Shown here piece by piece: positions 1,279 to 58,809 of a stretch of 64,000 nt of DNA (within the stretch, counting starts at the first letter, position 1; every line of letters starts with the position of its first letter). A model generated the notes under the pieces. It searched no databases. It was not told where the DNA came from and was given only the letters and a program-made list of their open reading frames with translations. Source of the DNA: Lytechinus pictus (Eukaryota). The position numbers were made by a program, and so were the translations under genes. The stretch lies in contig NC_087250.1 in NCBI RefSeq assembly GCF_037042905.1, positions 6,202,001-6,266,000 of the forward strand, given 5' to 3'.

Positions 1279-1407
1279 TAAATCGGTTTGCGCGCGCGCG
1301 TGTGCGTGTTTGTGTGTGTGGCAGGGGGGGGGGGGTGGGTGGGTGGGGTGGGTGCATGTAGTGGAGGTGTCGTGGAGGTGTCGTGGCCGAGTGCTCTAAG
1401 GCACCTG

Positions 1408-4400
1408 GGCCCGTATTCCATAAACGAGATAAGCTTTTTGCTTAAGTCTTAGCAATTTGTCTTAGCATTTTGCTTGTCTAAGAAATCTTCCCTAACGATA
1501 TTCTATAAACTTTAAGACATTTGTCTCAAGTCAGACGATATGGCTAAGCCAAAGTCTCAAAGTCAAATTCTATGACCTTCTAAACTGCTACAGGGGTGAC
1601 TGCAACAAAATAGCAAAAATGTCATTGAAGTTGTTTTTTCTTAACAAGTTTGATTTTATTGAAACTAATTACAACTATTGTAGTAAAAGAAGAGCATTCA
1701 TCACCCATATATGGTAAGAATTCTTTATTCAGATTATTCTATATTTTGTTAATTACCAAAACATTTCAATCCCAAACCGAGTGACTTGCACAGTTTTTTA
1801 TGTATCAGTCCCATTCATTACTTTTCATGTATTGTTTGTCAAAATCTAAATGGAATAGGGTAGATTCCTCTCGACATCTTTATTCTACTTCAGTTGAAGT
1901 AGACCTAGGGTCTAAGGGAAAACATTTGTAACTTTTGAGACTAGTCTTGGGTCTAACATTAGGCCTAGATCTAGCCTAGGCCCAAGATCTACAACTAATA
2001 TCCGTCTGTTTGGAGGAGAATTGAACATTGTTTTTACTTTTTACTTTCCTGAAGGCTGAAGCAAAACGTAACTTTGTTAGTCTAGTGCCGTAGTGGAGCA
2101 ACTGAGACTGAAGCTACATATAGGCCTAGATCTAACGATAGACCTATATTAGTATTGGTCTAGGCCTAGAACATGCAGGACTTAGCCTGGCTTAGCCTTA
2201 AGACAGGGATAGATCTATCTAGATCTACATGTAGGTCTAGAATAGATCTGACTTAGGCCTAGACCAAAAGCTTCAGTCTCCGACTGTATTTTGGTTGTTC
2301 CGCTATTTTAGTATTACGAGTACGACACTAAACAGTCTAACGTTAAGTTGACCTAGTCTCACCAATGTGATATGACAGTAAATGTCAGAAACTTTTAAAT
2401 AAATCCCCAGAAACGACGGTTATTCCTGTCAACAGTGCTAGATATATCGCTATGCATTGCTTGCCAACTATGCCTAAAGTTAGATCTAGTCCTAGTAGTA
2501 GTCTAGACATCTATCTAGATCTACTCCTGCTTTAGGTCCATCTGTTTGTTTGGAGTTTTTATTTTATACATTTTGAGGACTTGTTTAGATCTAGGTTTCC
2601 AGGACTAGAAAACAGGCCTAAACCTAGACCAACACTGGCAACAGCTCAGTCTAGACTAGGGCCTAGATTTATATAGAATTTAGATCTAGGGCCTAGGCGG
2701 CCTAGCCTGTGCTTTCTTCTATTCATTCTAGATTTTATTTCTAGCCTATCCGGTAGCCCTAACGTTAGGACTTGCTGATCTAGTCTACTGTTTGATCTAG
2801 AAATCTCTAACCTAGGCCTAGATCTAGACTAAATGACTTACTCACTTAGACTAAAAGTTAGACCCTATCTAGATCTAGAACTATACCAATCTAGGTGTAC
2901 ATAGGGTCATAGTAATAGGTCTAGATCTAGAGACTTGTAGACTCTATCTCAATGTAGATTCTAGATCTAAAAATAGTAAATGTAGGCTAGATCTAGTCTA
3001 GTTCTACTCATCTAACGTTAGGCCTGAGAAAGGAAGTAGGCTAGGGATCTAGCATTGGATTATTTCTAGGACTAAAGAATCTTGATCTAGGCTTAGATCT
3101 AAACTAGGGGCTGTAGTTCGAAATCTTGAGGTCTAGCCCCCCCCCCCCAAAAAAAAAAAAAAAAAAAAAAAAAAACTAGAACTAAGCCCTCAGCTACATG
3201 TAGTTCTCTATGTAGCCAAACAAAAGTTAGCATTGACCATTGTCTTAATCTTTTTTGGCGTATACATGTAGTTATCATACAAACACATATTTTGATGAAT
3301 GAGAAAATGTGTCTTGCAGATTATTTTAGCTCAAAACCTACATTTCATGGACATATAGGCCAATGTCATAAAATGAAGAAGTAGTTCAATACACATCATG
3401 CTGTTTACACATTTATTGATCTGATATGCTGTTACCATGGCAACACATTTTCAAATATATGTCTTGCAGATCTACACCTCAAAATCAATGTGTGAGCCAA
3501 CTTTTCTAAGAATTGGTAAAACTAATAAAGGGATTCAAACCACAAGATTTTCACCTAATTTCTTTATAAATATAATATGTTGTTACCATAGCAACACGAA
3601 TTCTGATACAGGCAAAAGTATATCTTAGACATCTTCAACTCAGGACTATTGTGTTCGCCAACATTTTAGGAGAATTGACCAGTTGAAAACTGATAAAGTA
3701 ATTCAAATTACAAGATTTTCATCTAGTTTTTGTTATTTTATTTGTTGCCATGGCAACGCAATTTTTTATAAAGGCATAAAATATACTTTGCACATCTTCG
3801 CATCAAGACTAACGTTTGTGCCACATTTCATGAGAATTGATTAAAAACTGAAGAAGTCGTTGGAACTGCAAGATTTTTACATAATTTTTGCCCTAATATA
3901 CCGTTACCATGGCAACACAATTTCCGACACATGCGAAAATGTGTCTTGCACATCTTTACCTCAAGACTTATGTCTGTGGCAAACATCATGAGAAGTGGTT
4001 GAAATATTGTAAACTTGTTAAAACCACAAATTTTTCACCTAATTTTCGTTATTTAATAAGTTGTTACCATGGCAACGTAATTTTTGTATATAGGCATAAA
4101 ATATGTTTTGCACATCTTCACATCAAGACTAATGTTTGTGCCACATTTCATGAGAATTGGTTAAAAACTGAGGAAGTAGTTGGAATAGCAAGATTTATAC
4201 ATAATTTTTGCCATAATATACTGTTACCATGGCAACACAATTTCCGACACATGCAAAATTGTGTCTTGCACATCTTTTCCTCAAATCCAATGTGTGAGCC
4301 AACTTTCATGAGAATTGGTAGAAAACCGATGAAGTAATTTAAATTTTAAATTTTGGCCATAATATACTGTTACCATGGCAACACAATTTCTGAAAAAGCA

Positions 4401-4843
4401 AAAAAAAAATTTTTACACCTCCTTACCTTAAGACCAATGTGTGTTCCAAATTTCATTAAAATCGGTTAAAAACTGAGGAAGTAGCTCGAAATGCAATATA
4501 GGTATAAATTCTTTAAAAAAATTGGCCATGATTTGTTGGATTTAAACGTTGTCTTAAAGCAATTAAGACAACTCACAACTGTCTTAAAGTTAGGGCAAAA
4601 TTCTTAGCCATGTAGAATTTATGAAATACAGACTCTGCATATTTAAGAAAAGTTACTTAGCCATTCATCCTAAATCTGTCTTAGTCGCGCAAAAATTCTT
4701 AGCCAAATTCTTAGACAAAATTCTTAGCCAATTCTTTATGGAATACGCGTTTTGGCTAAGAATTTTGTCTTAGACAGAAAACTAAGACAAAATGCTTAGA
4801 TTTTTGACTTAAGCATGCTTATCTCGTTTATGGAATACGGGCC
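1408..4843 (+). mobile_element. Non-autonomous PIF/Harbinger-type DNA transposon, complete copy (3.4 kb)
   Basis: TIR GGCCCGTATTCCATAAACGAGATAAGC at 1408, reverse complement ending at 4843. Flanked by CTG (1405-1407) and CAG (4844-4846), i.e. CWG targets. No transposase ORF. Confidence 0.8.
3340..4500 (+). repeat. ~150-160-bp tandem repeat array inside the transposon, each unit with GTTRCCATRGCAAC
   Basis: Motif at 3431, 3582, 3744, 3903, 4063, 4223 and 4369. Mirror array in the second arm (~5110-6470) has 8 units. Confidence 0.85.
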
Positions 4844-4846
4844 CAG

Positions 4847-7800
4847 TAAGACAAAATTCTTAGCCAAAACGCGTATTCCATAAAGAATTGGCTAAGAATT
4901 TTGTCTAAGAATTTGGCTAAGAATTTTTGCGCGACTAAGACAGATTTAGGATGAATGGCTAAGTAACTTTTCTTAAATATGCAGAGTCTGTATTTCATAA
5001 ATTCTACATGGCTAAGAATTTTGCCCTAACTTTAAGACAGTTGTGAGTTGTCTTAATTGCTTTAAGACAACGTTTAAATCCAACAAATCATGGCCAATTT
5101 TTTTTTTTGAATTTATACCTATATTGCATTTCGAGCTACTTCCTCAGTTTTTAACCAATTTTCATGAAATTTGGAACACACATTGGTCTTAAGTTAAGGA
5201 GGTGTAAGATTTTTTTTTTTGCTTTTTCAGAAATTGTGTTGCCATGGTAACAGTATATTATGGCCAAAATTTAAAATTTAAATTACTTCATCGGTTTTCT
5301 ACCAATTCTCATGAAAGTTGGCTCACACATTGGATTTGAAGAAAAGATGTGCAAGACACAATTTTGCATGTGTCGGAAATTGTGTTGCCATGGTAACAGT
5401 ATATTATGGCAAAAATTATGTATAAATATTGCTATTCCAACTACTTCCTCAGTTTTTAACCAATTCTCATGAAATGTGGCACAAACATTAGTCTTGATGT
5501 GAAGATGTGCAAAACATATTTTATGCCTTTATACAAAAATTGCGTTGCCATGGTAACAACATATTAAATAACGAAAATTAGGTGAAAAATTTGTGGTTTT
5601 AACAAGTTTACAATATTTCAACCACTTCTCATGATGTTTGCCACAGACATAAGTCTTGAGGTAAAGATGTGCAAGACACATTTTCGCATGTGTCGGAAAT
5701 TGTGTTGCCATGGTAACGGTATATTAGGGCAAAAATTATGTAAAAATCTTGCAGTTCCAACGACTTCTTCAGTTTTTAATCAATTCTCATGAAATGTGGC
5801 ACAAACGTTAGTCTTGATGTGAAGATGTGCAAAGTATATTTTATGCCTTTAAAAAAAATTGCGTTGCCATGGAAACAAATAAAATAACAAAAATTAGATG
5901 AAAATCTTGTGATTTGAATTACTTTATCAGTTTTCAACTGGTCAATTCTCCTAAAATGTTGGCGCACACAATAGTCTTGAGTTGAAGATGTCTAAGATAT
6001 ACTTTTGCCTGTATCAGAATTCGTGTTGCTATGGTAACATATTATATAACGAAAATAAGGTGAAAATCTTGTAGTTCGAACTCCTTCATCTTTTTTCAAC
6101 CAATGCTCATGAAATTTGGCACACACAATAGTCTTGAGTTGTAGATGTGCAAGACTATTTTTGTCTGTATCAGAAATCGTGTTGCCAAGGTAACAACATA
6201 TTATATAAAGAAATTAGGTGAAAATCTTGTGGTTTGAATCCCTTTATTAGTTTTACCAATTCTTATTAAAGTTGGCTCACACATTGATTTTGAGGTGTAG
6301 ATCTGCAAGACATATATTGGAAAATGTGTTGCCATGGTAACAGCATATCAGATCAATAAATGTGTAAACAGCATGATGTGTATTGAACTACTTCTTTATT
6401 TTATGACATTGGCCTATATGTCCATGAAATGTAGGTGTTGAGCTAAAATAATCTGCAAGACACATTTTCTCATTTATCAAAATATGTGTTTGTATGATAA
6501 CTACATGTATACGCCAAAAAAAGATTAAGACAATGGTCAATGCTAACTTTTGTTTGGCTACATAGAGAACTACATGTAGCTGAGGGCTTAGTTCTAGTTT
6601 TTTTTTATTATTTTTTTTGGGGGGGGGGGCTAGACCTCAAAATTTCGAACTACAGCCCCTAGTTTAAATCTAAGCCTAGATCAAGATCCTTTAGTCCTAG
6701 AAAAAATCCAATGCTAGATCCCTAGCCTACTTCCTTTCTCAGGCCTAACGTTAGATGATCCGGAGTAGAACTAGACTAGATCTAGCCTACATTTACTATT
6801 TTTAGATCTAGAATCTACATTGAGATAGAGTCTACACATCTCTAGATCTAGACCTATTACTATGACCCTATGTACACCTAGAGGCTAGATTGGTATAGTT
6901 CTAGATCTAGATAGGGTCTAACTTTTAGTATAAGTGAGTAAGTCATTTAGTCTAGATCTAGGCCTAGGTTAGAGATTTCTAGATCAAACAGTAGACTAGA
7001 TCAGCCAGTCCTAACGTTAGGGCTACCGGATAGGCTAGAAATAGAATCTAGAATGAATAGAAGAAAGCACAGGCTAGGCCGCCTAGGCCCTAGATCTAAA
7101 TTCTTATATAAATCTAGGCCCTAGTCTAGACTGAGCTGTTGCCAGTGTTGGTCTAGGTTTAGGCCTGTTTTCTAGTCCTGGAAACCTAGATCTAAACAAG
7201 TCCTCAAAATGTATAAAATAAAAACTTCAAACAAACAGATGGACCTAAAGCAGGAGTAGATCTAGATAGATGTCTAGACTACTACTAGGACTAGATCTAA
7301 CTTTAGGCATACTTGGCAAGCATTGCATAGCGATAGATCTAGCACTGTTGACAGGAATAACCGTCGTTTCTGGGGATTTATTTAAAATTTTCTGACATTT
7401 ACTGTCATACCACATTGGTGAGACTAGGCCAACGTAACGTTAGACTGTTTAGTGTTGTACTCGTAATAGCGGAACAACCAAAATACAGTCGGAGACTGAA
7501 GCTTTTTGTCTAAGTCAGATCTATTCTAGATCTAGATAGATCTATCCCTGTCTTAAGGCTAAGCCAGGCTAAGTCCTGCATGTTCTAGGCCTAGACCAAT
7601 ACTAATATAGGTCTATCGTTAGATCTAGGCCTATGTAGCTTCAGTCTCAGTTGCTCCACTACTACGCCTACGGCACTAGACTAACAAAGTTACGTTTTGC
7701 TTCAGCCTTCAGGAAAGTAAAAAGTAAAAACAATGTTCAATTCTCCTCCAAACAGACGGATATTTATTATTAGTTGAAGATCTTGGGCCTAGGCTAGATC

Positions 7801-8354
7801 TAGGCCTAATGTTAGACTCAAGACTAGTCTCAAAAGTTACAAATGTTTTCCCTTAGACCCTAGGTCTACTTCAACTGAAGTAGAATAAAGATGTCGAGAG
7901 GAATCTATTCCATTTAGATTTTGACAAACAATACATGAAAAGTAATGAATGGGACTGATACATAAAAAACTGTGCAAGTCACTCGGTTTGGGATTGAAAT
8001 GTTTTGGTAATTAACAAAATATAGATAATCTTAATAAAAAATTCTTACCATATATGGGTGATGAATGCTCTTCTTTTACTACAATAGTTGTAATTAGTTT
8101 CAATAAAATCAAACTTGTTAAGAAAAAACAACTTCAATGACATTTTTGCTATTTTGTTGCAGTCACCCCTGCAGCAGTTTAGAAGGTCATAGAATTTGAC
8201 TTTGAGACTTTGGCTTAGCCATATCGTCTGACTTGAGACAAATGTCTTAAAGTTTATAGAATATCGTTAGGGAAGATTTCTTAGACAAGCAAAATGCTAA
8301 GACAAATTGCTAAGACTTAAGCAAAAAGCTTTTCTCGTTTATGGAATACGGGCC
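4847..8354 (-). mobile_element. Second, inverted copy of the same Harbinger-type element lacking its last ~71 bp
   Basis: 4847-8354 is the reverse complement of 1408-4772, with scattered substitutions, short indels and one extra ~156-bp repeat unit. Ends in TIR ...ggaatacgggcc followed by CTG (8355-8357). Confidence 0.85.
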
Positions 8355-10464
8355 CTGGCTATACATGGAAATTCCGGGGTTCGATCCCGGCCGCGGCACC
8401 TATGCCCGTGAGCAAGGCATTTAGTCTACAACGCTCTTTTATCCCGCTATCAAATAAATGGAAATGCTATATGCTTTATTGGTAAAAAAAAAAAAAAAAG
8501 TGTATGGGGGGGTGTGCGTGTGTGTGTGTGTGTGTGTGTGTAGGGTTGACTTAGATGGGTTGACTTCATGTTAGGTAGGGGTATCTTTGTAAGAGGTGTT
8601 TTTTTTTTCACTTAAAAGAAATACGTTTTACTTACTTATTTTTAAGATCATTTTCATATCATGGAATCTTTATACAAGAAAATAATAAACCAACTCTCAC
8701 TCCGAAGGGCTTACGCTCATGAAATCATCATTATTAAATCATTAAAAGTACAAATAAAAGTGACTACATATTTTCTTTTTTCGGGTGTTAATTATCGTTG
8801 CACTCGGTTAGGAGAATTCGGTTACAGGACCTTGCTTCCTGAATCATCAAGAGATTTTGAGATCTCAGAAGACAGGATTACCTTCTCAACACGCCATCTT
8901 CAACACTTCGCTTTGTCTTCAAACAATATCCATGGAGTTCAATTCACTTGTGAGGTATCGCAACCTCTTTTCATGAGCAACTCCCAACAACCCACCATAC
9001 GAGTCCGCATAGCACATCCTTACAACAGAGACAATGTGGTATGTACATGCAGGTCTTATAACATGATCAATTGTGTTATTTATTGCATAAGGAACACAAA
9101 TTGTATTCATGCTTATATGAATCAATATTGGTTAGGTCCTTACTGATTTGGGGTTACAGGCTTGTTAATAAATGCTTGGTGTGTGAGCAACAAGATTTGC
9201 AAAGTAAGCATTCCATGTCTTGTCCATATAGGCTGGATTTTTGTCGTTATCATAATTCTGTTTAACTACATCTGGAATTTAATATGCTTTAGTATTGAGT
9301 CGTATGATACAAGAGCAAGGCTCTTTGACTTCCTTTGTGCTTTGTATTTCGATGTATAGTAACAATAATTTCAAATCTATTATCATATAACGATTGTTTT
9401 TTTAGAAGTTAGGAGAAAGAAACGAAAGTAGCTCAGAGCCATTCTATCACGTGACTACAGTGATCAAATTCAATCTGAAATCATCTGAAGATGGCATCAA
9501 GCTTTCCTGTCTATCCGACCGAGAAAAGACTCAAGAGACTGTAAGCCTCTAAAACAGATAAATTGTTCGTGATTTGTTTTTTCTGTTTTTAAATTTTCGT
9601 CAGAAATCGAAAGTCTGTTTTAATTTACTTGTATAAGGCAAATTTACCTGAATTTGTTCCTGTTCAAGATTTGACAAGAAAACACAATGACAAAGCTACA
9701 TCGAGATAAAACAAATCTGAAAAAAGAGTGCCAACGATCATTGTACTTTTCAAAATTTCATTAATTCAAGATCTCGAGACAAATTGCTGCACTAATTCCA
9801 AATTCCCACCCTGACATTTCGTATGAAAATAAAATGTAATTCAATTCATATTAAGACATTTTTTAAAAAGAAAAAAATCACGGTCTTTGGATAACAAGTG
9901 ACAGTATATAACAGGGGCAATTGCTTAAGGAGATTGGCACCGCTAGCCGTTGCAAAAAAAATGTTTACCTCGCACTGAAATGGTCAAGCTTCTGTTTGTA
10001 AATATACATAATCATAACATATTGATTAGGATTAAAACTAAATGGTAACGTTGCAAAAAAATTGTAATAAATTACATCACTTATTCATGATTTCATACTT
10101 GAGATTATGATGTCATTGTCATTTTTTTTGTCTTAAGGTTGATGTTCGCTGTCTTCTGTCTGGGGGTAATAGTACTACAGATTTTTGACTACCGCCCTCT
10201 GCCGATCAGAAGAGTATTTGTGTTTGCATCGAGCAAGGTTTATTTAATTTGGCAGAACAGCAAGTACACATTTGTAGATAAGGTATATATGGATGCATCA
10301 TCATTTGAAATAGAGAGGGATCATAATGTGGTCTGTCTCTGACAGATCACCCCTTAATTTCGTCAGATTGTTCTTTATTACTTTTTTAGCTCCAATGTTT
10401 GTCGCCAAGTTTACTCAAAATCTGGCAAAAATATTGGCAGCAATATTTATCCATTATATCAAAA

Positions 10465-10827
10465 CCTATCTATCTTTCTGTCCGTCTATCTAATAATCTA
10501 TATTTTTTCTAACTATCTCTATGGCTATCTTATATATATCTCTTTAAATACGTCTATCTATTTACCTTTCGATCTAATATCTATTTTTATCTCTTTAATA
10601 ATTGTGTATGTTTATCGACATAAATCTATCTTTCTCTCTATGTTCTATCAATCTATCCACCTATTTTTCATCTATCCACCCATCCATTTTCATGTATCTA
10701 TCTATCCATCTATTTATTTATCTAACTATCTTATATCTATCTGTTTAAATATGTTTATCTTTCTATCTATCTTTTGTATATGTATCTGTGTATAATATAT
10801 CTATCTATTTATCTATCTATCTATATC

Positions 10828-10890
<63 letters not shown>

Positions 10891-11060
10891 GTCTGTCTAT
10901 TTATAATATATATGTCTGTCTTCTATTAACTTACCAACCTATCATTTATCCATCCATCCATCCGTCTATCTAATTATCTGTCTTACATGTATATGTTGAA
11001 ATATGTATGTCTATCTGTCTGACTGTCTATTCATCTTCAAATGCCCGTTTCTCTATCTAC
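10465..11060. repeat. (TCTA)n/(TCCA)n microsatellite-rich tract
   Basis: Pure (ctat)n at ~10830-10890 with degenerate flanks. Confidence 0.95.
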
Positions 11061-11752
11061 GACAGACCACTTTATTCGTCCGCATGACGAATTAAAATCT
11101 AGTTCAAAATATCTTTTTTTACCGTCCCAACTAGAAAAATATTTTAATCATGTGCCCAAGTGAAAGTATATGATTAGTATAAATAATCACTGTTTGGAAG
11201 TTTTATTGTATGACATATTAGGCGGATTTACCTGATTTAATTCCTGACGAGAATTTCATAATAAAAACACATATAATGGCTGCATCATGATAAAAATAGA
11301 CTTATATAATTTTATGAAATCTGAAATAATATTTGAAATGTATTACCTAAAAACAAAGAGTGAAAACAATTTGAAATCATTTACAAGGCATGTGGGGTTA
11401 TCAACTTTTCTTTATTTTTATTCTGAACAGTGGAACCTGATTACGAACAAGCTCACATGTAAGAGACGTTGATCTTTCCAACCAATCAGAATAAAACGTG
11501 ATCACATTACTTACAAAATCCTAAAAAAAGACAAAGTCAATATGTGTTGATAAAACGAACTACATGGAACATTCTTGTCTTTGGAAACAAAAAGTTTGAC
11601 AACTGATTGACATAAGATGACACTGTAAACACATCTCATGAAGTTGGACATTTGTAGTGATTCATAAACTGGATAAATTTTTGTTTCCAACATATTTTAT
11701 GACTTGTTTGCGAATTTGATATATAAATGGAAGATATCTTGAGTAATATTGT

Positions 11753-12058
11753 GGAGCGTAATTGTGGCCCAGTGGATTAGGCTCCGGACTTTGAAACAGA
11801 GGGTCGTTGGTTCGAATCCCAGCCATTGCGTAATTTCCTTCGGCAAGAAATGTATCCACATTGTGCTGCACTCGACCCAGGTGAGGTGAATGGGTACCCG
11901 GTAGAATTTATTTCTTGAATGCTTTAGCGCCTATATGGCGGCTCAGCTACAGCCGAGGTAATAATATATCACGTATATTTTCTGCGCCTTGAGCACATAA
12001 TCAAATTGTAATCAAATTTTGAAATTTAAGAAATACTCTATATCATTATTATTATTAC
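11753..12058 (+). mobile_element. tRNA-derived SINE
   Basis: A box tggcccagtgg and B box ggttcgaatccc, central gctgcactcgacccaggtgaggtgaatgggtacc core, (ATT)n tail. Confidence 0.85.
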
Positions 12059-12749
12059 TACTGTACCTCCTCTCTGTGCAGGCTGTACTGTTCATCTACA
12101 TCCAAATTTGATTTGGATGGCGGGCTTGTAAAGTGACATGGGGCTAAAGAATATTGGAAAGAAGGACCTCTGCCAATAATTTCTTTAATGTACACAATAC
12201 ATTGGTACTCTTTATTGCAGAAGAGGCCGAATGAGGTTCGTCTCGACCAAGGTACTACACGAGTTAACTGGCTTAATCTGTAAAACAAAGAATGTTCGTC
12301 AACTTGGCTTCTCCTATTCAACGGTGGAAAGATACCTCGTCAGAGCAGACTCCTCGGCCAGAAATGTCTGAAGATCAGGTCTTAAAGAGATGCTCCAAGA
12401 CTGGAGAAAGCGTATCCGACCTAGTGAACAGCTTACCAAACTTCGCCTTGCTTTGGAGGCCGCGGGGCTAGGACGTGAATCGGAAGTCATCTTCCACGGA
12501 AATTAGAATGTAGTCAATCGTCATGGGCCAAACTGAAATATCTAGGTTTTCGAACGACGGGAATGTGTCAGCTTGATTAATGTACCAAAATCATAAAATC
12601 CTCTTAGAAAAATTAGAGTATTATATAATAGGGATTGCAGTGGTTCCAGCGTTACCTCTCAAACCGATCACAAGTATTGTCTTACAAGGATAAAATATCC
12701 AGACATGGAGCTATTTTATAGGTCCATGATCCAGATATAGATGTATTAC

Positions 12750-14951: not shown

Positions 14952-15221
14952 AACCGTGAGACAACTGGTTATTTCTTCTACTCAATCATGTATGTACTGT
15001 TTTTTTGGTTATAACGAGAATGAAAATAAATGAACTTGGACTTGTATAGAAAATACTTTCATCCTCGTAAATCACAAATGAATCAATAATAAACCGATAT
15101 GAAAATCAAATGAAATGCCACATCTCTTCAAGGTTTAAGTGCTGTGGGCTCAAACAAATGATGGGTGAGTTGCATAGCATCTGACTAATGAACTCACCAA
15201 GGCACATACCAAAGACTTTAA

Positions 15222-15398
15222 AGGGGAATCCAGCCTTGGTCATAATATGTTGTGTTTGAATGAAGAAAAACAAATAAAACAGAATGGTGAAAGTTTGAAA
15301 GAAACCGGACAAGCAATACGACAGTTATGGCTGTTTTAAAATTGAGATCTCTAAGACTAGGTAGATTTCAAATTGGCAACTGGGTAAGTAAACTATGT
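15222..15398 (-). mobile_element. Terminal fragment of the Kolobok-like MITE found complete at 41035-41630
   Basis: ttaa-aggggaatccagccttgg... matches the reverse complement of ~41455-41634. Confidence 0.75.
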
Positions 15399-28907: not shown

Positions 28908-30119
28908 GCATTTACCAATAACCTCGCAGACGCTTTCTCGAACGGAGAAAATCTGTTGTCAAAAGCCCTTCATAACAAAACAGCCTTTGTCGAAAATCGG
29001 TGAGTGAAACATCAGTGTAGTCCTAGACTCTGCACAAACGACATATTTGCAATTTTTTCGGTCCGAATCTTGAAACGATGTGCTGTCCCCGTCCACCTAC
29101 TTTCGACCTCTTATCTGTCCATTGTGATTTGACCAACATTTTCAATAGATTCCGAACGGTGCAAAAAGCGTCTGCGAAGTGATGGTAAAAAACGATATTA
29201 ATTAATGACGCTTCATATCACAGTATCATTTGACATCTCACCTACATCTACCGATAATCATGGAATAAGATAAGCATTTCAACCCTCGGTACACATTTCA
29301 AAGCATACGAACGATAAGAAATCACGCAAGCAACCAATTCCGAAATACAACTTTATTTGAAGAAGAAGATGTATCATTTTAAGAGCGTATTAACAAACCG
29401 CTTAACGGTACCTGATTATCTTTGGTGTTTTTGTTATGAAAAATATCAAATTTTTTTTTAGATCTATTTCCAGACGGCATTGAGAAAGTGTTGGTGTTTC
29501 AACAGCCTACACAGACGATTTATCTCACTTGAACCGTATTTTTTTCTTTAATAATGGTCATTCGTACATCATTTCTTTTGTCTTTGACTCTAAATATAAA
29601 TCAACATTATTGTGATATTGAATGATAATAAAAGTAAGTCTTGAAGGTTATGTATGGAAAACCCTAGCTTTTAAGAAGTAAACCAGCCACCCCAAATTAA
29701 ACGATAAATCACAAGGGTCTTTTGTAGATATCCTAAAAGAAATTTGGTCATTAAAAAACAATTAAATAATTAGACTCCAGCAATGGTGAAAAATGGAGCG
29801 AGAATGTCCCGCTTCGCGGGGATTCACGCCAATGCCCGGCGAAGGCAATATCGTTCAGCTTGGTTTTCTTGGAAAGAGCGAGTTATTTTGCATGATAGCG
29901 TTTTTATTAGTACATGAATAATAAGCTCACGAAGTACAAGAAAAAGACAAAATAAGTCAAATTTGAGGTCCAATTATCACTTGTATTCGTCACCTATGTC
30001 ACATTTCTGCCCGAACTGTTCTCGACGGAAATCATGTTTTCTTGCGACAAGGGACCATTTTCTTTTCCACTAATTTCCCTAATCTAAGATTTTTTCCCCT
30101 TCCCTACTGTATTACAGCG

Positions 30120-30423
30120 ATGACAACACAAGGAGCTGTTACCGATGATCTTCTTTCCAAGCTGGCTGAAGACATCGAGACAGGTGAACAGATGGAGGGC
30201 TTAGGACGAACACTAGGGTTCAACGCTGCAGCCATCAATAGATACACAGAAACTAACAGACTAGAAGGACGAGTCACTTGCAAGGGAACACGTGACATGC
30301 TGTTTGACTGGAGACAGACCGTGGAGCCTGCCGACCAGCATCTCAGGCTGAAACAAGCTCTTATTGATGCTCATCTAGTCACGCTTGCTGAAACTCATCT
30401 TAAAGAGACAATAACCACTCCGG
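30120..30423 (+). CDS. NLR exon: N-terminal death domain
   Basis: Acceptor tacag|cg at 30117/30118, ATG at 30120, donor g|gtaggt at 30424. Protein: MTTQGAVTDDLLSKLAEDI...LGRTLGFNAAAINRY...DMLFDWRQ...LKQALIDAHLVTLAE. Confidence 0.9.
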
Positions 30424-31542
30424 GTAGGTTTAAAATTCCCACATTCTATATCATAAAGGTAACAAAAGAATACACATGTGTTTTGTTTTGTTTTGGTGCA
30501 TTTGGTGGATGACTGTTTGCATACTCACTCTGTCTCTCTCTCTCTCTCTCTCTCTCTGCAATCCATCATCAAGTGTCACGTTGTTTGGAAATTAATGAGT
30601 GCTTCTTTTGAAAAGTAACGAAAGCATGCTAAATGTGTGTTAATGTCTATCGTATCAGAAATCAAATTCGTATCAGATATCAAAACAATAAAACAGCATG
30701 TATAAGGAAAATTACATTTTGGGGAAAGGTGCATCATGAAGTAGATTTGTTAACATTTACAGAAACTTTTATTTTTCTATATCAGATGATACTCAAATGC
30801 AAACTTGTATGCTTTACTGAATAAACAAAATTGCATGCGTTTAGATATGCCTGTGGAATATGCGTTGCATATTTTCAAGCTTCCTTGCATACGGTGATAA
30901 TATTTGATTAAAACAACGCTCAATACTATTTTGTTTGCATTTTATGTATATGTTTTTGTCATATATTTGATTTGGAATATGTAATCGAATTGAATGGAAT
31001 TGAACAAAATGACGGATATCATATATTATATAAAGTTAGCAATCTCAAATCTACACACAAAAAAAGAAGCTAATTATACCTGTATCCAAAGAACACAATT
31101 TATTTCATTTGGAGAATTCTATTCCACCTTCTATAAAATTTTGCCGAAAGTTATTTATTGCAGCCTCGAACAAAATAAGGAGTATTATCGAGCAACCAAG
31201 AAACCAAAAAACAATTATCGGTGTCATCTGACAGAGGAGATTTTGCAGCATTCTTCATCATATAAAGAGACACAGTAACAGCTTTTCCAAAATATATTTA
31301 TTTTTTTTCATGACATGCACTCTATACTATCCACTTCAATATTACGCATTTGTCTAGTACTGAGTGTAAATATATTATCTGTGAAAAAAAGGGCTCGATA
31401 CGACGTTTTTTTTTTCACACGGGGTTATCCCTTTGATATGAATTATATCGATTTATCTTAAATCCATTCAAATTCAGATTTATTTATAAATAAAATTACA
31501 TTACAAAATGTATTGAAGTATTACATAAGGTGAGATAAAATT

Positions 31543-37026: not shown

Positions 37027-37349
37027 GTCTGCTTCGATATATATATATACTGTATATACAATTTCTGCCTCCAAATTTTTTTTTTACAAATTATAGATAC
37101 ATAAAAGACAAAGAAAATGCTATGCACGTAACACAACAAAACAATTATAAACATAATTTTTCAGATTATTTTCATTTTTCTCAATATAAAAAAATAGCAT
37201 TGATATCAGAGGTACTTTTGCCATAGTGTTACTCTTTATCAAATTTGCAACAATGCATACTTATCATTTCATTTTGATTTGTATCATTATTTTGAAGGAC
37301 GGTTATCGCATTTATTTTCTTTACTGTTTTTTGTTTCTTATTATTTCAG

Positions 37350-38920
37350 ACATATACAGTGAGAAGATTTCGGAATCTCTGACTGTTCGAAAATGTCGCA
37401 CAATCTTGGAGGATACATACTCGACAGAGCTATGCAAAATTCAAATGAAACCGTGGGACAAAGATGATTATGCAGAGTTTGAAGAAATGCACACCGTTGT
37501 TACTATGGTAAAGAAAGACTCTCATGGAGAAGATATTAAGGAAAAGGAAATACTTAAAGGCTCAGCTGGGAAAATATTTTCAGCAAAAGTAAACGGAAGG
37601 TTTCCACCTCGAATCCTTATTTCGGCTCCAGCAGGACGAGGAAAGACGACAGCTGTGGCTAAGATGGCACACGACTGGATTCACAAAGAACATGGGTCAG
37701 GATTAGAGGACTTGCCACTTCTGTTTGTTGTAAAGTTTCGAAATACAAGTAAAACAACATCGATTGGAGAAGCCATCATATCGCAACTCCTGAGTGATGT
37801 TGATGATCTGACACCAGAGGGGCTAGAAAGTTTTATCAGACAGCATCAGGGAATCTGTCACATTGTACTTGACGGGCTAGATGAGTATGCTGGGATTTCT
37901 TCCACAAGCAACATCTTAAGCATTCTCCAATGGAAAATGTTTCGACAATGTCGAGTTCTTGTTACAACTCGACCTCACCTGGACGACTTTTTCAGTCAAG
38001 GGGATCTACCAAGGGTATACACGAAGATGGTGATCGAAGGCTTCTCACCAGAGAGCTCCCGTAATTACATCGACAAGTTCTTTACTTCCATTAACAAGTC
38101 TATGAGTGCAGATGGTCTGAAGGTTTATCTTGATGAGCAACCATTAATTGAGGAACTGGTAAAAACGCCACTGTTTTGCCTCATGGTTTGTCACCTATGG
38201 TCTGAAGATCCACTTCAAAGTGATATTACAAATCAAACAGCATTACTCGACAAAGTGAACGTGTTTTTAATGCACCATGCGAATGCTCGTTCACCCGGCT
38301 TGATAGAATCAACCCAAAATCTGACCAAAATAATCCTCAAACTTGGTGAAGTTGCTCTAACTGGTTTGCTCAATGATTCTAAGAAGTTAGTATTTAAGTC
38401 TCGTGATTTTCTGAGAATTCCTTCTATCCTGCATATGGCATGTGCCCTTGGAATAGTGTCTAAGACAGTTGTTTCAACCGGACGTCTTCCTCAAACAAGC
38501 GAAACATCTATAACTACTATTGAGTTTTATCACAAACTTGCTCAAGAACATGCAGCTGGGAAGTTCCTTGCCGATGAAACAAATCGCTTTATGTTTGCTT
38601 TCAAGATTAGTAAGATAGACCGAGTACTGCGAAAGATTAACAGAAACATTAGTGAATATGAAAATCTTATTCGCTTTGCTGCTGGTACGAAGAACAACCT
38701 CTGCGTAAGAATAATGGAAACGCTCCTTACAAATAGCTATTTATCTGAGAGTGAGCGATATCGTATTCTCCTCGATTGTTCGTCAGAGTCTGGGGTTAAC
38801 GTTGGGGGTGTGTCATCGTTGATTCGGAGGTGTGTGACGGCACAGAGTATGATCTTAAAGTCACCAACAGTATATACTGCAGTTGGGATGCGAAATCTTC
38901 CTAGTGAGCTGAAACAGAAG
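37350..38920 (+). CDS. NLR exon: NACHT NTPase plus helical/winged-helix domains
   Basis: Acceptor tttcag|ac at 37349/37350, donor aag|gtattc at 38921. Walker A APAGRGKTT, Walker B IVLDGLDEY, sensor-1 VLVTTRP, TPLFCLMVC, and winged-helix EFYHKLAQEHAAG. Confidence 0.95.
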
Positions 38921-39240
38921 GTATTCTAGCCAGATAATGATTTCTAGAGCAATTTACGTGATTTATAATTTTACATATTTTGTTGTCATAAATAACCAAA
39001 AAACATATTGATCGTAAAAAACCAATACAAAATCAACAGTCACTTAAAATATATTCATCTATTCATCACATGGTCAACTTTTATTTAGGCTCATGCAATT
39101 ACGTCTAATAACCAGATAGTACAATAGCCATTTAGTATATATGTCATTTGGTCTAAATGGACTAAGTATTAAATCGTGGAAAATTAATGAAAATGAAATT
39201 GATATCAGACCATCTGGTTATGAGACGAAATGGTGATTAC

Positions 39241-41034: not shown

Positions 41035-41630
41035 AGGGGAATCCAACCCAAATAAAAACTTTTTTTATAAGGTAAAGACAAATCAGACAAGTTGATAGGT
41101 GAACGTTTGAACAATATTGGACAAACAACAAGAAAGTTATGATTTTTGTAAAGTTGTAAACATTGGTAATCACTATACCCATGGAGATTTCCAAATTGGC
41201 CGCATATGGGATGTCACAGTGATGTAAGGCAAGGACTACTCTTCCATGTCCTCCAACACATATTATGGCTAAAATGTCATTTTTCCCCAAAGTTTTATTT
41301 TAAATTATATTTTTCTTTCATGAGGACATAAAACAATATACTATCTGGGTTATATTTAGATTACTGCCCCAAGGGGAATGGGTACTTAGGAGAAAACCAC
41401 AAATTCCTGATAATAAAGTACATGGCCTATGGGAGAGTTGTCCTTGCCTCTTGTCATAATTTACTTACTCAGTTGCCAATTTGAAATCGACATAGTATTA
41501 GTGATCTCAATTTTAAAGCAGCTATAACTTTCTTATTGCTTGTCCTATTTCTTTCAAACTTTCACCATTCTGTTTCATTTGTTTTTCTCCTTCTCAACAC
41601 AACATGTTATGGCCAAGGCTGGATTCCCCT
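41035..41630. mobile_element. Kolobok-like MITE (TTAA TSD), complete
   Basis: TTAA at 41031-41034 and 41631-41634. TIR aggggaatcca / tggattcccct. The empty site is visible in the paralogous repeat at ~41911-41960. Confidence 0.9.
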
Positions 41631-42209
41631 TTAATGTCTTTGTTGTTGTTTTAACTCATACGGCGCGTATTGTGAATATATGCGCTAAGAGTAAATTGAG
41701 AATCAAGTATAGTTTTTTCTCCAGACCCGGTAACTAAAAACTAAAACCCTATAGTATTGCGCTCATATAGCACAAAAGTGCAGTCTTTTTTCCAGACCCG
41801 CATAATTCAAAAATTATAATATAAGTCCAAACTAAGATACGATAATGATATTCCAGTGGAATAAAAATAAGAATCGAGCTTAGTCTATTATCCAGACCCA
41901 GTTAATTAAAACTGATGGAATAAATGCCTTGGATGTTGTTTTAACTTATTCGGCGCGTATTTTGAATATATGCGCTAAGAGAAAATTGATAATCAAGCGT
42001 AGTCTTTTCTCAAGACCTGGTATCTTAAAATTAAAAACTAAAACCCTTTACCCACAAATGTAATAATTTCACCCACAAATGTAAACAATGCACTTTACCC
42101 CCAAATGTAATAATTTTTGATCGCCCACAAATGTAATAATGACTTTATCCACAAATGTTTTACATTTGAAGGGATCTTTGGCGAATCTGTTCTAAACTAG
42201 AACCCTATA

Positions 42210-49033: not shown

Positions 49034-52000
49034 CCCGATATTAGTAACCATCTGGAATAAAATTATTGGAAATGGTTTTTCAACTGATTTGAGTAGGTAT
49101 GGGTGTCAACATTTACAAAAAAAAAGTTAGGTAGAATACGGGGTGGGGAAAGTGTTTTTTTTTCAAGGTCAAATGGTCAATGACCTTTTCATATATCCTG
49201 TATAATGGTATCTCTGATATGAAAAGGCGCAGGTTGGCGATCATGGTGTCAAAATGCACAGATTCTTACAAGAAGATCAAATAAAATAAAATTAAGTACC
49301 TATAATGCACATTCACCCTTAAAATTCATGGTCAAAGCCATTCAAAGGTCAATGCCCTTTTATATATTATATACCATACTGTATAACAGTATCTCTGAGA
49401 TGAAAGGGCGCAGGTTGGTGATCTTGGTGTCAAAACGCACAGATTCTTGCAAGAAGATCAAATGAAATAAAATCAAGTACATAGAATTCACATTCACCCA
49501 TTAAATTTCAGGTCAAAGGTCAATGGCCTTTTATACATTATATACCATAATATATAATGATATATCTGAGATGAAAAGGTGCAGGTTGATGGTCTTGGTG
49601 TCAAAATACACAGATTCTTACAGGAAGATTAAATAAAATAAGAATTAAGCACCTTGAATGCTTATTTACCCATAAATTCAAGGTCAAAGCCTTTCAAAGT
49701 CAATGATCTTTTTTTTTTCATTATATATTATACGGTATAATGGTATCTCTGAGATGAAAAGGCACAGGTTGGTGATCTTGGTGTCAAAATGCATAGGTTC
49801 GTACAGGAAGATCAAATAAAATAAAAGTAATCACCTAGAATTCATATTAATCCACAATTCAAGGTCAAATGTCAATTACTTTTTTTTACATATGTATCAT
49901 ATAATATCTCTGAGATAAAACGCTGCATGTTGGTGATCTTGGTGTCAAAAAGCTATTTTTGCAAGAAGATAAAAAGGCACAAAAGAATCATAAAGGATAA
50001 TCATTCACCTTTGAAATCCAAATTCATAGGTCAAAAGTTAATATCTATATATATATATCCTTGCATGACCCCTGACCCCCCCCCCCCCCAAAAAAAAGAG
50101 AAAGTTATCCCATTTGTTCGTATTTTATTTGTGAATAATTTAAAGAAAGATGGGTATTTGTTATGAAAACCTTGCTGTAAAATAATTTCACTTGAATAAG
50201 GATAAAGACCAGGAAAATGTATTTAGGGGTTAGAGGTCACTTAACTATTTCAATAACGTCAGGGGAATTAAGTAATAGGTTGATAACTTGATTGTGGCAT
50301 GTAGGTATAGTGATTCTGATGGGATAAAGAAATTGAAAACGACTGGCCTGCATGGAAAACGAACACAAAATTAATAGTTGAATCCTTGATCAATTCTGCT
50401 GTCAAAATACAAGTTCGAGGTGAAATTGAGATCAAATAACACCTTTTAATATATATTGTAATGCATTGCCAAAAGTGAAAAAAAAATCATTTATATAATT
50501 TGAAAATGGTGAAGTTGTCTGAAGTAGCAGCATTTAGATGTACAATTTATGAATCTAAATCAAGGTACTCATTTATTTTTCTATGTAGCAATATGTCACT
50601 AACCTCAAATGCTACAATGATACTATAAACTACAACTTTATCTTTAAATGGATTGGCCTAACTCTCAGTCAGAGCAAGCATCATCCGAGAACATTTTCGA
50701 ATAGCCAGGGACAGTGATGAAGACTTAAAGTAAGGCATTCATTTGAGTTGCAGCTTTTGTCAAAGAAAAGGATGTTAAGTGTCCCAACTTCAGCAAAGAC
50801 TAATTAAACTCTGAAAGCCCTTCTGACATCTTCAGGTACTTTGATCTGGCCCATTCCATGAAAGCCTAACGTTCTGTCAAGGGTTAGCAAACAAGGATCT
50901 ATATTATTACTGATATGTTGCACAGCTTGATTCTCAAGAACTGGAAGTGGTGCTGTAGGAGTTTTGTTTGTTAGGTCGATAGATGTGTACTTGTAAGCTA
51001 CTATCTCCCTTTGAATTTCATTATTATATGCCTAATTTGTGCATTAATAACAATCAGTTGTTCTGAACCAAATATATGATCCCTTTACAAACTGATACCT
51101 AGCAGAAATAGCATCATGGATGATTTAAGGTTGAAGGAGATATGAAGTTTTTGTCCGGCAGCATTAGCATCTCAAGAGATTTCGGCAACTCGTAATGAGA
51201 GGTAATTAAAATAATAAGGGAATATGATCTTTGCTGAAGTTGAGATACGTAATGTCAGACATTTAATGCCATTTACTATGACAGAAGCTGCAGCTCTAAT
51301 GATGGCCGTTTTTTCATCATCATCCCTCTGCTGTTTTGAAATGCTCTCAGTTGATGCTAGCTGTGACATGATAATTGGACCTATCCTATCCATTTTCAGA
51401 AGATTAAACTAGTAGTTTATAGTATTTATTATAGCATTGAGGTAAGTGACCTATCACTGGAAAGAAAAAGACATGGCATAATTATTGATCAAGGATTCAA
51501 CTTTTAATTTTGTGCTCAAACAGTTTTAGTTGTTTTCCACCAGAATCACTATACCTCCATGCCACAATCAAGTTATCAACTTTGTTTAAACCTAATTTTC
51601 ATTGATGATTTAGAAAGAATTCATATGACCTAGGAGATTACCGTTAACATTTAAAAAGCCAAATAGTTTTGTTAATTCTAATTTTTTGGTATATAATTTC
51701 ATAGTTTTCTCACTTAGCTTTTTGCCCACTTTGTTTAACCAGAGTAACAGGGTATTGCCAAATTTGACTAGTCACTTTTAATTCACATTACACAAAGATT
51801 GGTCTATTTTACATCCACATAATTAATGGCTGGGCTGATAAAATCTTGTATCTCAAAATTTTAAAATTAATTTTGAGGGCAGCCTATAAAAGGCCGTGTT
51901 TTGAAAAATATAGTAATTGTGACAGTCTCATATTGTCTGAAAGCAGTCTCCTAATACCTGTGAAGAACTCGTTTGAGACAAAAGAAGGTTGCTACCCATG

Positions 52001-53148
52001 TTTATAACTCTAAAATCTAGCTTATTCTGAGCTGTCAAAAAAATATTTAAATTTTGAGATAAAGATTTGATCAGCCGCGATATACAAAAAGTGATGCATG
52101 CATTGCATTGTACAGTACATAGACAAAACTTATCTTTACAATAAACCAGTCAAAGTTTATTGTGAATTAAGTTAGCATAGTCCTTGCAAATCCCTTTTAA
52201 AGGTGCACCCTAACATTAATTTTGCACAGGAGATGTTTAAAAAAGTCCATGGTTGGCAAAAAGTTAATCATGCAAAAAGAGCGATCAAATTAAAAAAGTG
52301 CAAAAAGTGGCAAAGCAGTAACTATAACACTTTGTATGTTTTTTTTTTCAGGTACTTCTTCGGGAATACCACCATTGACCTATACCCATAAATACAGTCA
52401 CCATGACCTTCATTATTTCAGAGTGAAATTATGAAACTTCCATGTTTTCATTACAAATTAGCCATCTTTCTTTACATTATTCACAAATAAAATATGATCA
52501 TAAAGGACAAATTTATGGTTATTTTTATGTCATGTTTATATATTGCCTCTGACCTTGCATTTATTCTTTATGCATATTTTTGTCTTGTTTGATCTTGTTT
52601 TACAAATCTTTGCATTTTAGCATCAAGATCATCACCTGCGGTGTTTTATCTCAGAGAAACAATTATATAATGTTAAAAAGGTCATTGACCTTTGACCTTG
52701 AATTGTATGGGTGAATGTCCATTTCATGTACTTCATTTTATTTCATTTGACCTTCTTGCAAGAATCTGTGAGTTTTTACACCAAGATCACCAACCTGCGC
52801 CTTTTTATCTCATAGATACTGTTATACAGCGTGGTATATCATGTATAAAAGGGCATTGACCTTTGAAAGGCTTTGACCTTGAATTTTAAGGGTGAATGTG
52901 CATTATAGGTACTTAATTTTATTCAATTTGATCTTCTTGTAAGAATCTGTGCATTTTGACACCATGATCGCCAACCTGCGCCTTTTCATCTCAGAGATAC
53001 CATTATACAGTATATATGAAAAGGTCATTGACCTTTGACCTTGAAAAAAATCACTTTCCCCACCCCGTATTCTACCTACTTAAATCAGTTGAAAAACCAT
53101 TTCCAATAATTTTATTCCAGATTGGCTCTTTTGGGGTCTAATTTAGGG
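49034..53148. mobile_element. 4.1-kb EnSpm/CMC-like DNA transposon with long TIRs and decayed internal coding remnant
   Basis: CCC...GGG termini with 2-bp AT TSD. ~1.2-kb inverted arms contain ~180-bp tandem units (49050-50330 vs 51530-53121). Minus-strand remnant RDDDEKTAIIRAAASVIVNGIK near 51300. Confidence 0.7.
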
Positions 53149-54155
53149 ATACAATTGTGCAAAATGTAGATACTGTGATTTTTGAAGGGGAAACCCAAAG
53201 TTCAGTGTAGATAGGGCTACTCCGTTTTGCAGTTACTGAAAAGTAATTTTCCCAAAAGAAATGCATAAAACTGGATGTTTCATGTGAAAAAGGGTGGTTC
53301 ACCTACTACTTTTCTGAAAAAGGGTGAAAATTAAAGAAAAAAAAGTCAGATACTGCGGTTTTTCGTAGGGGGGCAGGAATTTTGATTTGCGCCAAAATAA
53401 GGTATGACGACATGAAATGAATCCAGATGTCAATGATGTCATTATCCTACAACTTAGGACTGCATAAAATCCGGTTCAAAACACATTTTCCATTAATTTG
53501 CATTATTATTGTTTAATAAACACTTTTCTATATCGATTCTCAACTTAATTTCATTGAAAAAGGATTTGCAAATATGTTTTCTAAGTCATGTAGGGTTATG
53601 ACATCATTTGCGTCTTGGGTTCATCCACTGCAGTCATGCCTTGCATTTTTATAAATCAAAGTTAACGTCATTGCCAATAATACCTACTGATTATTACAGC
53701 GCGAAAACATACCACATACCACATAAATGAGGTATCAAATTTATTTTGGAGAAGACACTCTTTCTTTCAAAATATATATATGATTATGCGTCCATGGCAT
53801 TTTTTTTTTATTGGGGATGTTCGAGGTGTCATTTTTTCACTCACACGTAATAATAGTACATGGGTAAATGAATGAGAATACTACGATTAGATTAAACAAT
53901 ATACAATCAGAAAAAAAAAATAACAGAAGAAGCTTTGTATTGCAAGGCGGTTTTACTGATTTTTCTGCTAATCGAAAGACGTACACATTCCTATGATAAA
54001 AAATGAAATAAATGAATCGACACTCCGTTTTCCAAATAGTTAAAGAAACCATATTGATTGATACATTAAATACTTTCATAAATAAACTTATCCGAATATT
54101 TCTCCTCCCTACGCTGATTATTTAATTCACCTTTTTTCTTGTATCTCCACAACAG

Positions 54156-54472
54156 GTTGTTCATGTGCAGTTCGAGGAGTCAATCCTGGCAACCGCTGTG
54201 ACAGATAGACTATGGTCCTGTCTTAAATCATTTCCAGAACTAGGTTACCTCACCATCTCAGACTCATCTCTCATTTTCCCTTCATCTCCTCCTGAACTAC
54301 CATCCGTCATAAAGCTATCAGTCAATAAAGTGACGTTACAATGCTACGAAGGGTTGATCTCATCACTACCTGGGTTGCAAGATATCGATGTCGAAGATGC
54401 AGCTAGAGATGACTTTGTTGAATATGTCGAATCTTCAACACGTTTGACATCATTGCAACGACTTGAGATAAA
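54156..54472 (+). CDS. NLR LRR cassette 1, long exon
   Basis: Boundaries aacag|gtt and aa|gtgagg. Protein: VVHVQFEES...LWSCLKSFPELGYLTISDS...LISSLPGLQDIDV...LTSLQRLEIK. Confidence 0.9.
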
Positions 54473-55204
54473 GTGAGGGTTCATGTTCTTAACTCATTAT
54501 TTGCCGAGGATGTTCATTGTTACCATGCCCGGATGCAATCCCCCTCCCGATTATGTGTTCAAAGCGCTCTTATATTAATTCGATACTGTCAAGCGCCCCG
54601 CCCTTTCCTTTATAACGGTCATTTATAATCGGATATCACGCTGAATGTAATATGTCGGCCTATTATAATATCCCAAACTGCTTAAAAAACCTTTTTAGGT
54701 AAACTGTAATGAGATCACAATACGCAGTAGGTAACACGTATTAAAAAACGTAGATCCAGTTAAACTGAATTCCTTTTCCATCGCTCACATTTACACCGAT
54801 ACAGGATGTGCAGGCAGGAGGCAAAATTATTCGGCAAATATGTTGAGCAAAGTGGTCGAGGTACTTGAACGGATTTTCCTCGCTCGTAGTCAAAATTCAT
54901 CTGGACAGCTGTTTGGCTGCATATTATATATAAAAAAGGGAGCAATAAAGTATATCATTACAAATGTATACGTCTATTACATCACAAAGTCCCCTCCCCC
55001 TCTCTCTCTTTAACTGGTCATAATTTTAACATTAGAACATCGCAAGAGCAGCTCATTACAATATTTGTCACAATAATATTGTCGTTACCTATAATTATGA
55101 TAATAAAAAGAACTTTAAACCTAAGGCACTTGGTTCACATCTGAATGATGTATTATGGTTTATTATCATTCCCGTTATGAATTTCTATTTTCTATGCAAT
55201 TCAG

Positions 55205-55253
55205 AACTCTTGATAGATGGCAATTCGACTTTGATACCGCGAAAGGTGTTCAG
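55205..55253 (+). CDS. NLR LRR cassette 1, 49-nt exon
   Basis: Boundaries ttcag|a and cag|gtgagc. Protein (K)TLDRWQFDFDTAKGVQ; phase 2 to phase 0. Confidence 0.85.
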
Positions 55254-58648: not shown

Positions 58649-58697
58649 ATCTCTTGATAAATGGCAATTCGACTTTGATACCAGCTCAGGTGTTAAG
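58649..58697 (+). CDS. NLR LRR cassette 2, 49-nt exon
   Basis: Boundaries cacag|a and aag|gtaagc. Protein (K)SLDKWQFDFDTSSGVK. Confidence 0.85.
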
Positions 58698-58809
58698 GTA
58701 AGCTTAGCTGTAATATGTTGCTGTATATTAATTTTGTAAATTGTTGGTTGCTATATAAAACTTAACGTTATCAGGGCCGGATCCAGCTTTCACCAATGGA
58801 AGGGGGAGG

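Follow-up and report, generated by a model that had tools for sequence, protein, structure and literature searches.

Anatomy of a 6.9-kb inverted dimer of a Harbinger-type element that splits a SINE in Lytechinus pictus, and its possible origin by double insertion at one target

The stretch of DNA analyzed here, referred to as the window, comprises 64,000 nucleotides of Lytechinus pictus (assembly GCF_037042905.1, contig NC_087250.1, positions 6,202,001 to 6,266,000, forward strand). It contains a mirror repeat of about 6.9 kb (6,947 bp) in which two copies of a Harbinger-type transposable element, copy A and copy B, stand tail to tail inside a short interspersed nuclear element (SINE), with arms of about 3.4 kb and the left terminal inverted repeat (TIR) of the element at both outer ends. 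The unit, its target-site duplication (TSD) and the two halves of the SINE consist of the following features, where X1, X2, X10 and X23 are public runs with which the unit was compared.

1374–1404, forward strand: 5′ part of the tRNA-type SINE, with the A box at 1384–1394 (27/30 match to the upstream consensus of intact copies)
1405–1407, forward strand: left TSD, CTG (flanking letters; a single CTG in intact SINE copies)
1408–4843, 3,436 bp, forward strand: copy A, a complete non-autonomous element with 27-bp TIRs (alignment, TIR and profile search), nearer to the copies of other genomes than copy B
1960–3100, no strand assigned: AGATCT/CTAG-rich internal segment of copy A, mirrored in copy B at about 6660–7800, with many short indels
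3457–4484, forward strand: 158-bp internal tandem array of copy A with the GTTRCCATGGYAAC palindrome, mirrored in copy B at 5294–6315, where there is one extra unit
4756–4799, forward strand: right subterminal hairpin with a 12-bp perfect stem (4762–4773/4782–4793) and an 8-nt loop (DNA fold)
4773–4843, 71 bp, forward strand: the one right end still present, unpaired within the spacer of the palindrome (alignment; intact monomer right ends in runs X1, X2 and X10)
4844–4846, forward strand: central CAG, read as a turned middle copy of the CWG target (alignment; junction models)
4847–8354, 3,508 bp, reverse strand: copy B, inverted and with its left TIR outward, the right end cut short by 71 bp (alignment)
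8355–8357, forward strand: right TSD, CTG (flanking letters)
8358–8480, forward strand: 3′ part of the SINE, with the B box at 8378–8388 (high copy in all four runs)

The inverted-repeat scan chained arm pairs from 1404/8358 inward to 4772/4847 (among the best 25 of 536 pairs), leaving a gap of 74 nt between the innermost arms. Global alignment of copy A with the reverse complement of copy B resulted in 3267 matches, 53 substitutions, and 16 indels, corresponding to an arm identity of 98.4% and a divergence of 1.6%. One of the indels is a 156-bp repeat unit of the internal array, and the last 71 bp of copy A remain unpaired, with no counterpart in copy B. The left and right TIRs of copy A match perfectly over 27 bp, and within the window the full-length TIR occurs solely at 1408, 4843, and 8354. 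The outer triplets at 1405–1407 and 8355–8357 are both CTG and the central triplet at 4844–4846 is CAG. This anatomy is observed directly and agrees with a first-pass annotation of the same DNA, which had described a complete element at 1408–4843 followed by CAG and an inverted copy lacking about 71 bp, a 74-bp spacer, and CTG around a unit with the left TIR at both outer ends. The view taken there that a read fold-back artefact is unlikely also holds, because the outer flanks do not mirror each other but are two distinct halves of one SINE. Copy B is truncated at the equivalent of position 4772, one base before the loop of the subterminal hairpin, which has a DNA folding energy of −14.3 kcal/mol (z −4.47) that was equaled by none of 200 shuffles. 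Seven Rfam matches at the center all fall below the gathering scores and reflect the hairpin alone, and a microRNA-precursor identity was rejected. The DNA of the window is AT-rich (27–41% GC per kb), and AGATCT is found 17 times in copy A compared with 0–2 times per 2 kb outside the unit.

The longest stop-to-stop frame in copy A, of 146 amino acids, lies within the tandem array and has no Pfam match at the cut-off, and thus no open reading frame for a DDE transposase or a Myb/SANT protein was found there. Judged from its sequence, the element is non-autonomous and gene-less and behaves like a NuwaI element, membership being assigned by the ends alone. The NuwaI group of PIF/Harbinger (PHIS) elements, which includes zebrafish HARBINGER3_DR (NuwaI-2_DRer), has a CWG TSD, TIRs of 12–61 bp that usually begin with GGG and, in its autonomous members, a DDE_Tnp_4 transposase and a Myb/SANT open reading frame (Han et al. 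2015, PMC4482050). Our element shares with this group the 3-bp CWG TSD, a 27-bp TIR within the given range, a terminal G, and a CACCWGG core at the target (PMC4482050; PMC3016246), so that the Harbinger-type ends with a CWG duplication recognized in the first pass are borne out. In contrast to the group, the element begins with GGC rather than GGG and has no open reading frame for a DDE transposase or Myb protein (PMC4482050). No echinoderm is present among the 23 NuwaI rows of Table S5 of that source, and the TIR start of our element has no match in its three supplements, one of which was covered in part (PMC4482050). A lead to an autonomous partner, a single metagenome match to the first 18 letters of the TIR, was set aside as chance; the match is likely coding and shows no further similarity to the window.

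For comparison with copies in other genomes, 24 public runs were compared by word content. The best share was 0.40, so all of them come from individuals other than the source of the window. Four of the runs (X1, X2, X10, and X23, the last an RNA run) were aligned to 4773–8483, which covers one arm, the spacer and the 3′ half of the SINE, yielding 928, 81, 3948, and 1284 records, respectively. The comparison takes in 40 of 447 variant rows, 15 of 199 joints, 24 of 880 loose ends, and 24 of 5293 pieces, and the results below are stated for these. Because each of the four runs covers every one of the 30 bins, the element family is multi-copy and common to three labeled organisms. Its monomeric form is seen directly in X1, X2, and X10, where the 71-bp right end is joined straight to the arm (strand-changing joint 4773–4847). 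In these monomers, and at one loose end in X1, the letters at −71 are the same as in copy A and are not CWG. The center junction of the dimer is not seen in X2, where the depth of 6.72 in bin 4773–4896 is fully accounted for by a single monomer contig that spans 122 of 124 letters, nor among the joints listed for X1 and X10, where monomer right ends are seen. A joint from 4783 to the arm, found in three contigs of X10 and two reads of X23, apparently lacks the ten hairpin-loop letters 4773–4782, which points to variation among other copies at the hairpin loop where copy B is cut. In X23, 86% of the aligned sequence runs into unlike sequence, and A>G and T>C places (34 and 33) show no excess over G>A and C>T places (34 and 39). 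These counts are no guide to double-stranded RNA from the dimer or to its editing, because the run comes from another individual and the family is multi-copy. Depth peaks with many loose ends were observed in X1, X10, and X23 at 7350–7400 and 7468–7512, both mirrored in copy A. These internal segments are common to a far more abundant repeat, pieces of which the element may have captured.

The 3′ half of the host SINE forms the deepest or near-deepest bin in X1, X2, and X10. SINE copies in the runs continue upstream from this half into a consensus with a single CTG that is 3 of 30 letters off window positions 1374–1403 when compared by eye, the intact copies behind it comprising 76 contigs in X10, 60 reads in X23, and two shorter contigs in X2. 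Since intact copies bear one CTG at this place, the target duplication is real. The TSD and the empty site are thereby observed, in accordance with the initial proposal that removing the unit restores an intact SINE whose promoter it splits. The A box and B box are now separated, which should silence this copy of the SINE and matters little. The head of the SINE, which may be tRNA-Leu-like, contains an 11-bp tandem duplication at 1357–1386, and no tRNA was found by ARAGORN and Rfam in the split copy. At this site a TSD of 1 bp, of 3 bp (CTG), or of 5 bp (CCTGG) each yields symmetric outer ends. A 3-bp CWG duplication is favored from the sequence of the center, where CAG is followed by T, together with the flanks of other copies. 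One left end in X2 matches through CTG and then differs, two left ends in X10 match through the first C, a right end in X2 carries C, and the shorter side of the X10 joint has 74 letters, which fits a right end plus CAG. Harbinger3_DR has a 15-bp target with the core CACCWGG (PMC3016246). The first-pass annotation had related the site to this preferred target, and the CACCWGG core is indeed present, whereas the full target is matched at only 9 of 15 positions, a score that 119 of the 1288 CWG sites in the window reach or exceed, so the similarity of the empty site is modest. Position 1403 is A here and G in the consensus of intact copies, and it is this A that gives the site its CACCTGG agreement with the core of the Harbinger3_DR target.

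Whether the arms are two insertions or one duplicated copy bears directly on how the dimer arose. Among the variant rows listed, 37 lie inside the element and 25 of these at differences between copies A and B, and the letter of copy A is present in the runs at 25/25. It is the majority letter in every covering contig run at 19 of the 25 sites, and at six it is common to X2 and/or X1 and rare or absent in organism C; three of these six (6397, 6667, and 6838) lie away from the tandem array. In the three X2 contigs that are fully resolved, B-only changes outnumber A-only changes by 10 to 2 (P 0.04). None of the 12 rows outside the A/B differences is unanimous across contig runs, and no private change common to both arms was found among the rows listed. 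Copy A thus shares letters with the copies of other genomes that copy B lacks, which fits two source copies and not duplication in place. The sequence comparison leans, although not firmly, toward two separate insertions of which copy B would be the older. The inner 258 bp of the arms are identical, which taken alone (P 0.005) could point to gene conversion or central repair; this reading was dropped, as an equally long identical stretch is present at 3800–4059.

To compare possible origins, the center was predicted from window coordinates under five models, and the edit distance of each prediction to the observed center was taken. Double insertion with deletion of one right end gives the observed center with 0 edits if the triplet is turned and with 1 edit without turning, compared with 3 edits for nested insertion at either internal triplet and 64 edits for fold-back on a local hairpin. 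The 71-bp deletion shows no microhomology, starts exactly at the border of the TIR and the triplet, and ends one base before the hairpin loop. A CWG triplet in turned orientation lies directly beyond the surviving right TIR, placing a target motif of TSD length at the dimer junction. Matched to the Harbinger3_DR target, the site that remains once copy B has inserted reaches 9/15, as does the empty site, compared with 6–7/15 for the site that would follow if copy A had entered first and with 1/15 and 4/15 for the internal triplets of the element. We consider it somewhat more probable than not that the unit is a tail-to-tail dimer formed by double insertion at one target and stabilized by a one-sided central deletion. 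The break, and the sequence of steps given below, are what we infer. Copy B would have entered CCTGG of the SINE and duplicated CTG. The first letter of the TIR is G and the last is C, which places both CTG duplicates in a CCWGG context once more, and copy A, derived from another member of the family, would then have entered the upstream duplicate in the opposite orientation. The product, CTG-A-CTG-B-CTG, would have been a near-perfect 6.9-kb palindrome with a 3-nt center. This center would have broken, one right end would have been trimmed by 71 bp to the hairpin loop, and the triplet would have been rejoined in turned orientation as CAG. From the geometry, the turning could be explained by a cruciform at the CTG-centered palindrome that was resolved along one diagonal, leaving the left end capped by the bottom-strand loop CAG; opening and rejoining of this capped end would turn the triplet in a single step. 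The same letters would result from a later crossover between the arms or from a CWG brought along from the donor site of copy A, and in a one-step variant the right end of copy A with its donor-site CWG would be end-joined to a trimmed copy B, giving the same product. The 74-bp spacer and the later divergence would now stabilize the palindrome. A NuwaII-type reading of the breakpoint of copy B, cut as C-TNA-G, was considered and set aside; CTTA precedes the breakpoint, and the motif occurs 16 times in copy A, with many occurrences near ends, and so is not telling. On the double-insertion reading, the unit is a piece of selfish-DNA debris and serves no function itself.

Several observations weigh against double insertion with copy B as the older copy. 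The central triplet is CAG and not the outer CTG, which calls for a turning step or a donor triplet, neither of which is needed for a dimer that moved as a whole. Contig 18 of X2 has at least three changes found in copy A only, and at worst the counts would be 13 versus 9 (P 0.52), making the asymmetry that marks copy B as older fragile. The variant evidence comes from 40 of 447 rows, of a kind that cannot list A-only changes. In the six rows with shared letters the other letter is unnamed, and for two or three of these rows, which fall within or next to the tandem array, paralogous units may have been aligned. An allele with copy B alone at this SINE was not seen in the runs compared, which are from other individuals.

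The turning step is what an origin as a composite would avoid. Here the dimer would have formed and lost its 71 bp elsewhere and then moved into the SINE as a 6,947-bp unit by means of its two left ends, in a Tn10-like or foldback-type manner. The unit ends in a left TIR on each side and has one TSD around it, and the central CAG would not need to match CTG. A pair of left ends may also be usable, given that the 27 bp of the left and right TIRs are the same. On the other side, one extra transposition is needed, in competition with the complete copy A inside the unit; the window has no other copy of the unit; the single monomer contig behind the central depth in X2 has no center junction; and X1 and X10 show monomer right ends. 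The composite two-left-end transposon proposed in the first-pass annotation is left unsupported by these relatives, and we regard a composite origin as unlikely. That the stabilized dimer is itself mobile, with two left ends transposing the 6.9-kb palindrome, is also rather doubtful. The other suggestion made there, aberrant or local transposition, was right in spirit and missed the double insertion and the central deletion (PMC5932611; PMC8701086).

A nested local hop, in which copy A entered copy B 71–74 bp from its right end and the leftover end was lost by a deletion between TIRs or by left-left transposition, would yield sequential and independent copies, and inverted nested insertions do occur in Drosophila (PMC5932611). 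The family, however, has GAC and not CWG at the required position, and both internal targets are 3 edits off with the poor target scores given above, making this route highly improbable. Inverted duplication in place, whether by hairpin fold-back or by aberrant gap repair that switched template between the TIRs, and with neutral divergence thereafter, is consistent with a breakpoint at a short hairpin and with the high identity of the arms. Simple fold-back would nevertheless leave a spacer of 8–10 nt, far from the observed center, and gap repair predicts a central CTG, 1 edit away. Copy A alone shares the letters of other genomes at up to six of the 25 sites among the variant rows listed, and these rows hold no private change of both arms, which again speaks against duplication, and we consider it distinctly unlikely. 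An assembly artefact, with opposite-orientation insertions at the same hotspot on two haplotypes united by a chimeric read join, could be reconciled with arm differences of allelic size and with a center that has no independent spanning read in the runs compared. Such an artefact would still require two insertions at one triplet and a chimeric junction with a 71-bp loss at the hairpin loop, and the unit is bordered by unique SINE halves and a clean TSD; it is therefore very unlikely.

Tn10 with IS10 and the maize double Ds are composites of two inverted copies, the double Ds being nested. The unit resembles these in its two inverted copies with like ends outward and one outer TSD, and differs in being without cargo and showing no sign of movement as a whole; the nested arrangement of double Ds does not fit this junction. 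Closer to the double insertion favored here, dimers of transposable elements in Drosophila are made by double insertion with a TSD at the junction, and favor good target sites (McGurk and Barbash 2018, PMC5932611). Head-to-head dimers of the P element were found in 8 of 85 strains, junction deletions in 24 of 36 hobo dimers, and inverted tandems are known for several elements (PMC5932611). As in our dimer, two copies of the same family abut with a motif of TSD length, inverted forms occur, and junction deletions are frequent (PMC5932611). Unlike our dimer, those of Drosophila (P, hobo, jockey, R1, Rover, and others) are mostly head-to-tail and based on short reads (PMC5932611), whereas the dimer described here is of Harbinger type and tail-to-tail; its two outer TSDs and its host SINE can be read, and its central triplet is turned relative to the outer ones. 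An extended target preference has been described for PIF/Harbinger elements (PMC2836001). With regard to the central deletion, a perfect 15.4-kb transgene palindrome in the mouse gained small symmetry-breaking central deletions that raised its stability 25-fold, 93% of 118 palindrome rearrangements were deletions, and spacers of 35–52 bp suppress palindrome breaks in other systems (review PMC8701086). The mouse transgene palindromes likewise are long inverted repeats whose center lacks a stretch from one arm only, resulting in a spacer (PMC8701086); the present unit differs from them in being natural and transposon-made, in the 1.6% divergence of its arms, and in that its break is deduced. No inverted dimer or composite of a Harbinger element was found in the literature searched, in which few subscription papers were covered. 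If the double-insertion reading holds, dimers of this kind, which are known as such, are extended to the CWG-type Harbinger family.

The host exon nearest to the palindrome lies downstream of the SINE.

8811–9038, forward strand: nearest host exon, encoding the segment that follows ZU5 in ZU5/death-domain proteins (protein homologues)

This exon matches 13 proteins, and ZU5 and death domains were found in all eight that were scanned; in the closest homologue (82%), the matched segment comes immediately after ZU5. The exons that follow are placed near 9415, 10138, and 12219, and the one near 12219 aligns to the death domain of the homologues. No ZU5 exon maps within the 64-kb window. These alignments probably place the palindrome within a ZU5/death-domain gene, in the intron that precedes the 8811 exon and about 450 bp short of the end of that intron. 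The first-pass annotation had put the palindrome next to an immune gene; it is probably inside an intron of the gene instead. An Ig C2-set domain assigned to the 8811 exon by weak recognition in the ESM Atlas was dropped, since the homologues show the segment that follows ZU5. Further downstream, the window contains a weak death-domain match at 29967–30512 (about 30.1 kb) and a NACHT exon at 37190–38929, which may belong to the same or to a neighboring NLR-type gene. Duplicated LRR-like exon blocks, labeled by eye, follow at 54126–62275, with near-identical pairs at 56449/61266 and 54735/61866. Judged by their sequence similarity, the exons at 8811–12500, 29967–30512, 37190–38929, and 54126–62275 probably represent an NLR-type immune gene or cluster.

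If the host intron is transcribed, the pre-mRNA would contain a 3.4-kb hairpin that is 98% paired, a natural probe of RNA editing and splicing. Extrusion of the DNA as a cruciform, considered likely in the first pass, is weakly founded; the 74-bp spacer exceeds the 35–52 bp that block breaks elsewhere (PMC8701086), and given this spacer and the 1.6% divergence we regard a cruciform today as unlikely. Should the double insertion with central deletion be correct, a single site would record three known steps, namely target regeneration, inverted double insertion, and one-sided central deletion, and the turned central triplet would be the trace of hairpin-capped break repair in the germ line. Should the unit be mobile, double insertion and central deletion would provide a route from an ordinary Harbinger-type element to a foldback-type element with 3.4-kb arms, and ready-made RNA hairpins would be dropped into introns. 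Unless the unit proves to move as a whole, no general principle is altered.

Other repeats were observed in the window. A 446-bp element resembling a miniature inverted-repeat transposable element, with inverted ends starting CCGTGTTTACAC, TA flanks, and many internal palindromic repeats, occupies 831–1276, with about 100 bp between it and the SINE downstream. A second long-arm, foldback-like element is present at about 49130–53076, its inverted ends of about 390 nt (91%) being composed of a 171-bp tandem unit, with TA beside a symmetric end. A 188-bp repeat is found in two dispersed copies of opposite orientation (15210–15397 and 41455–41642; 89%) and is probably the end of another DNA transposon.

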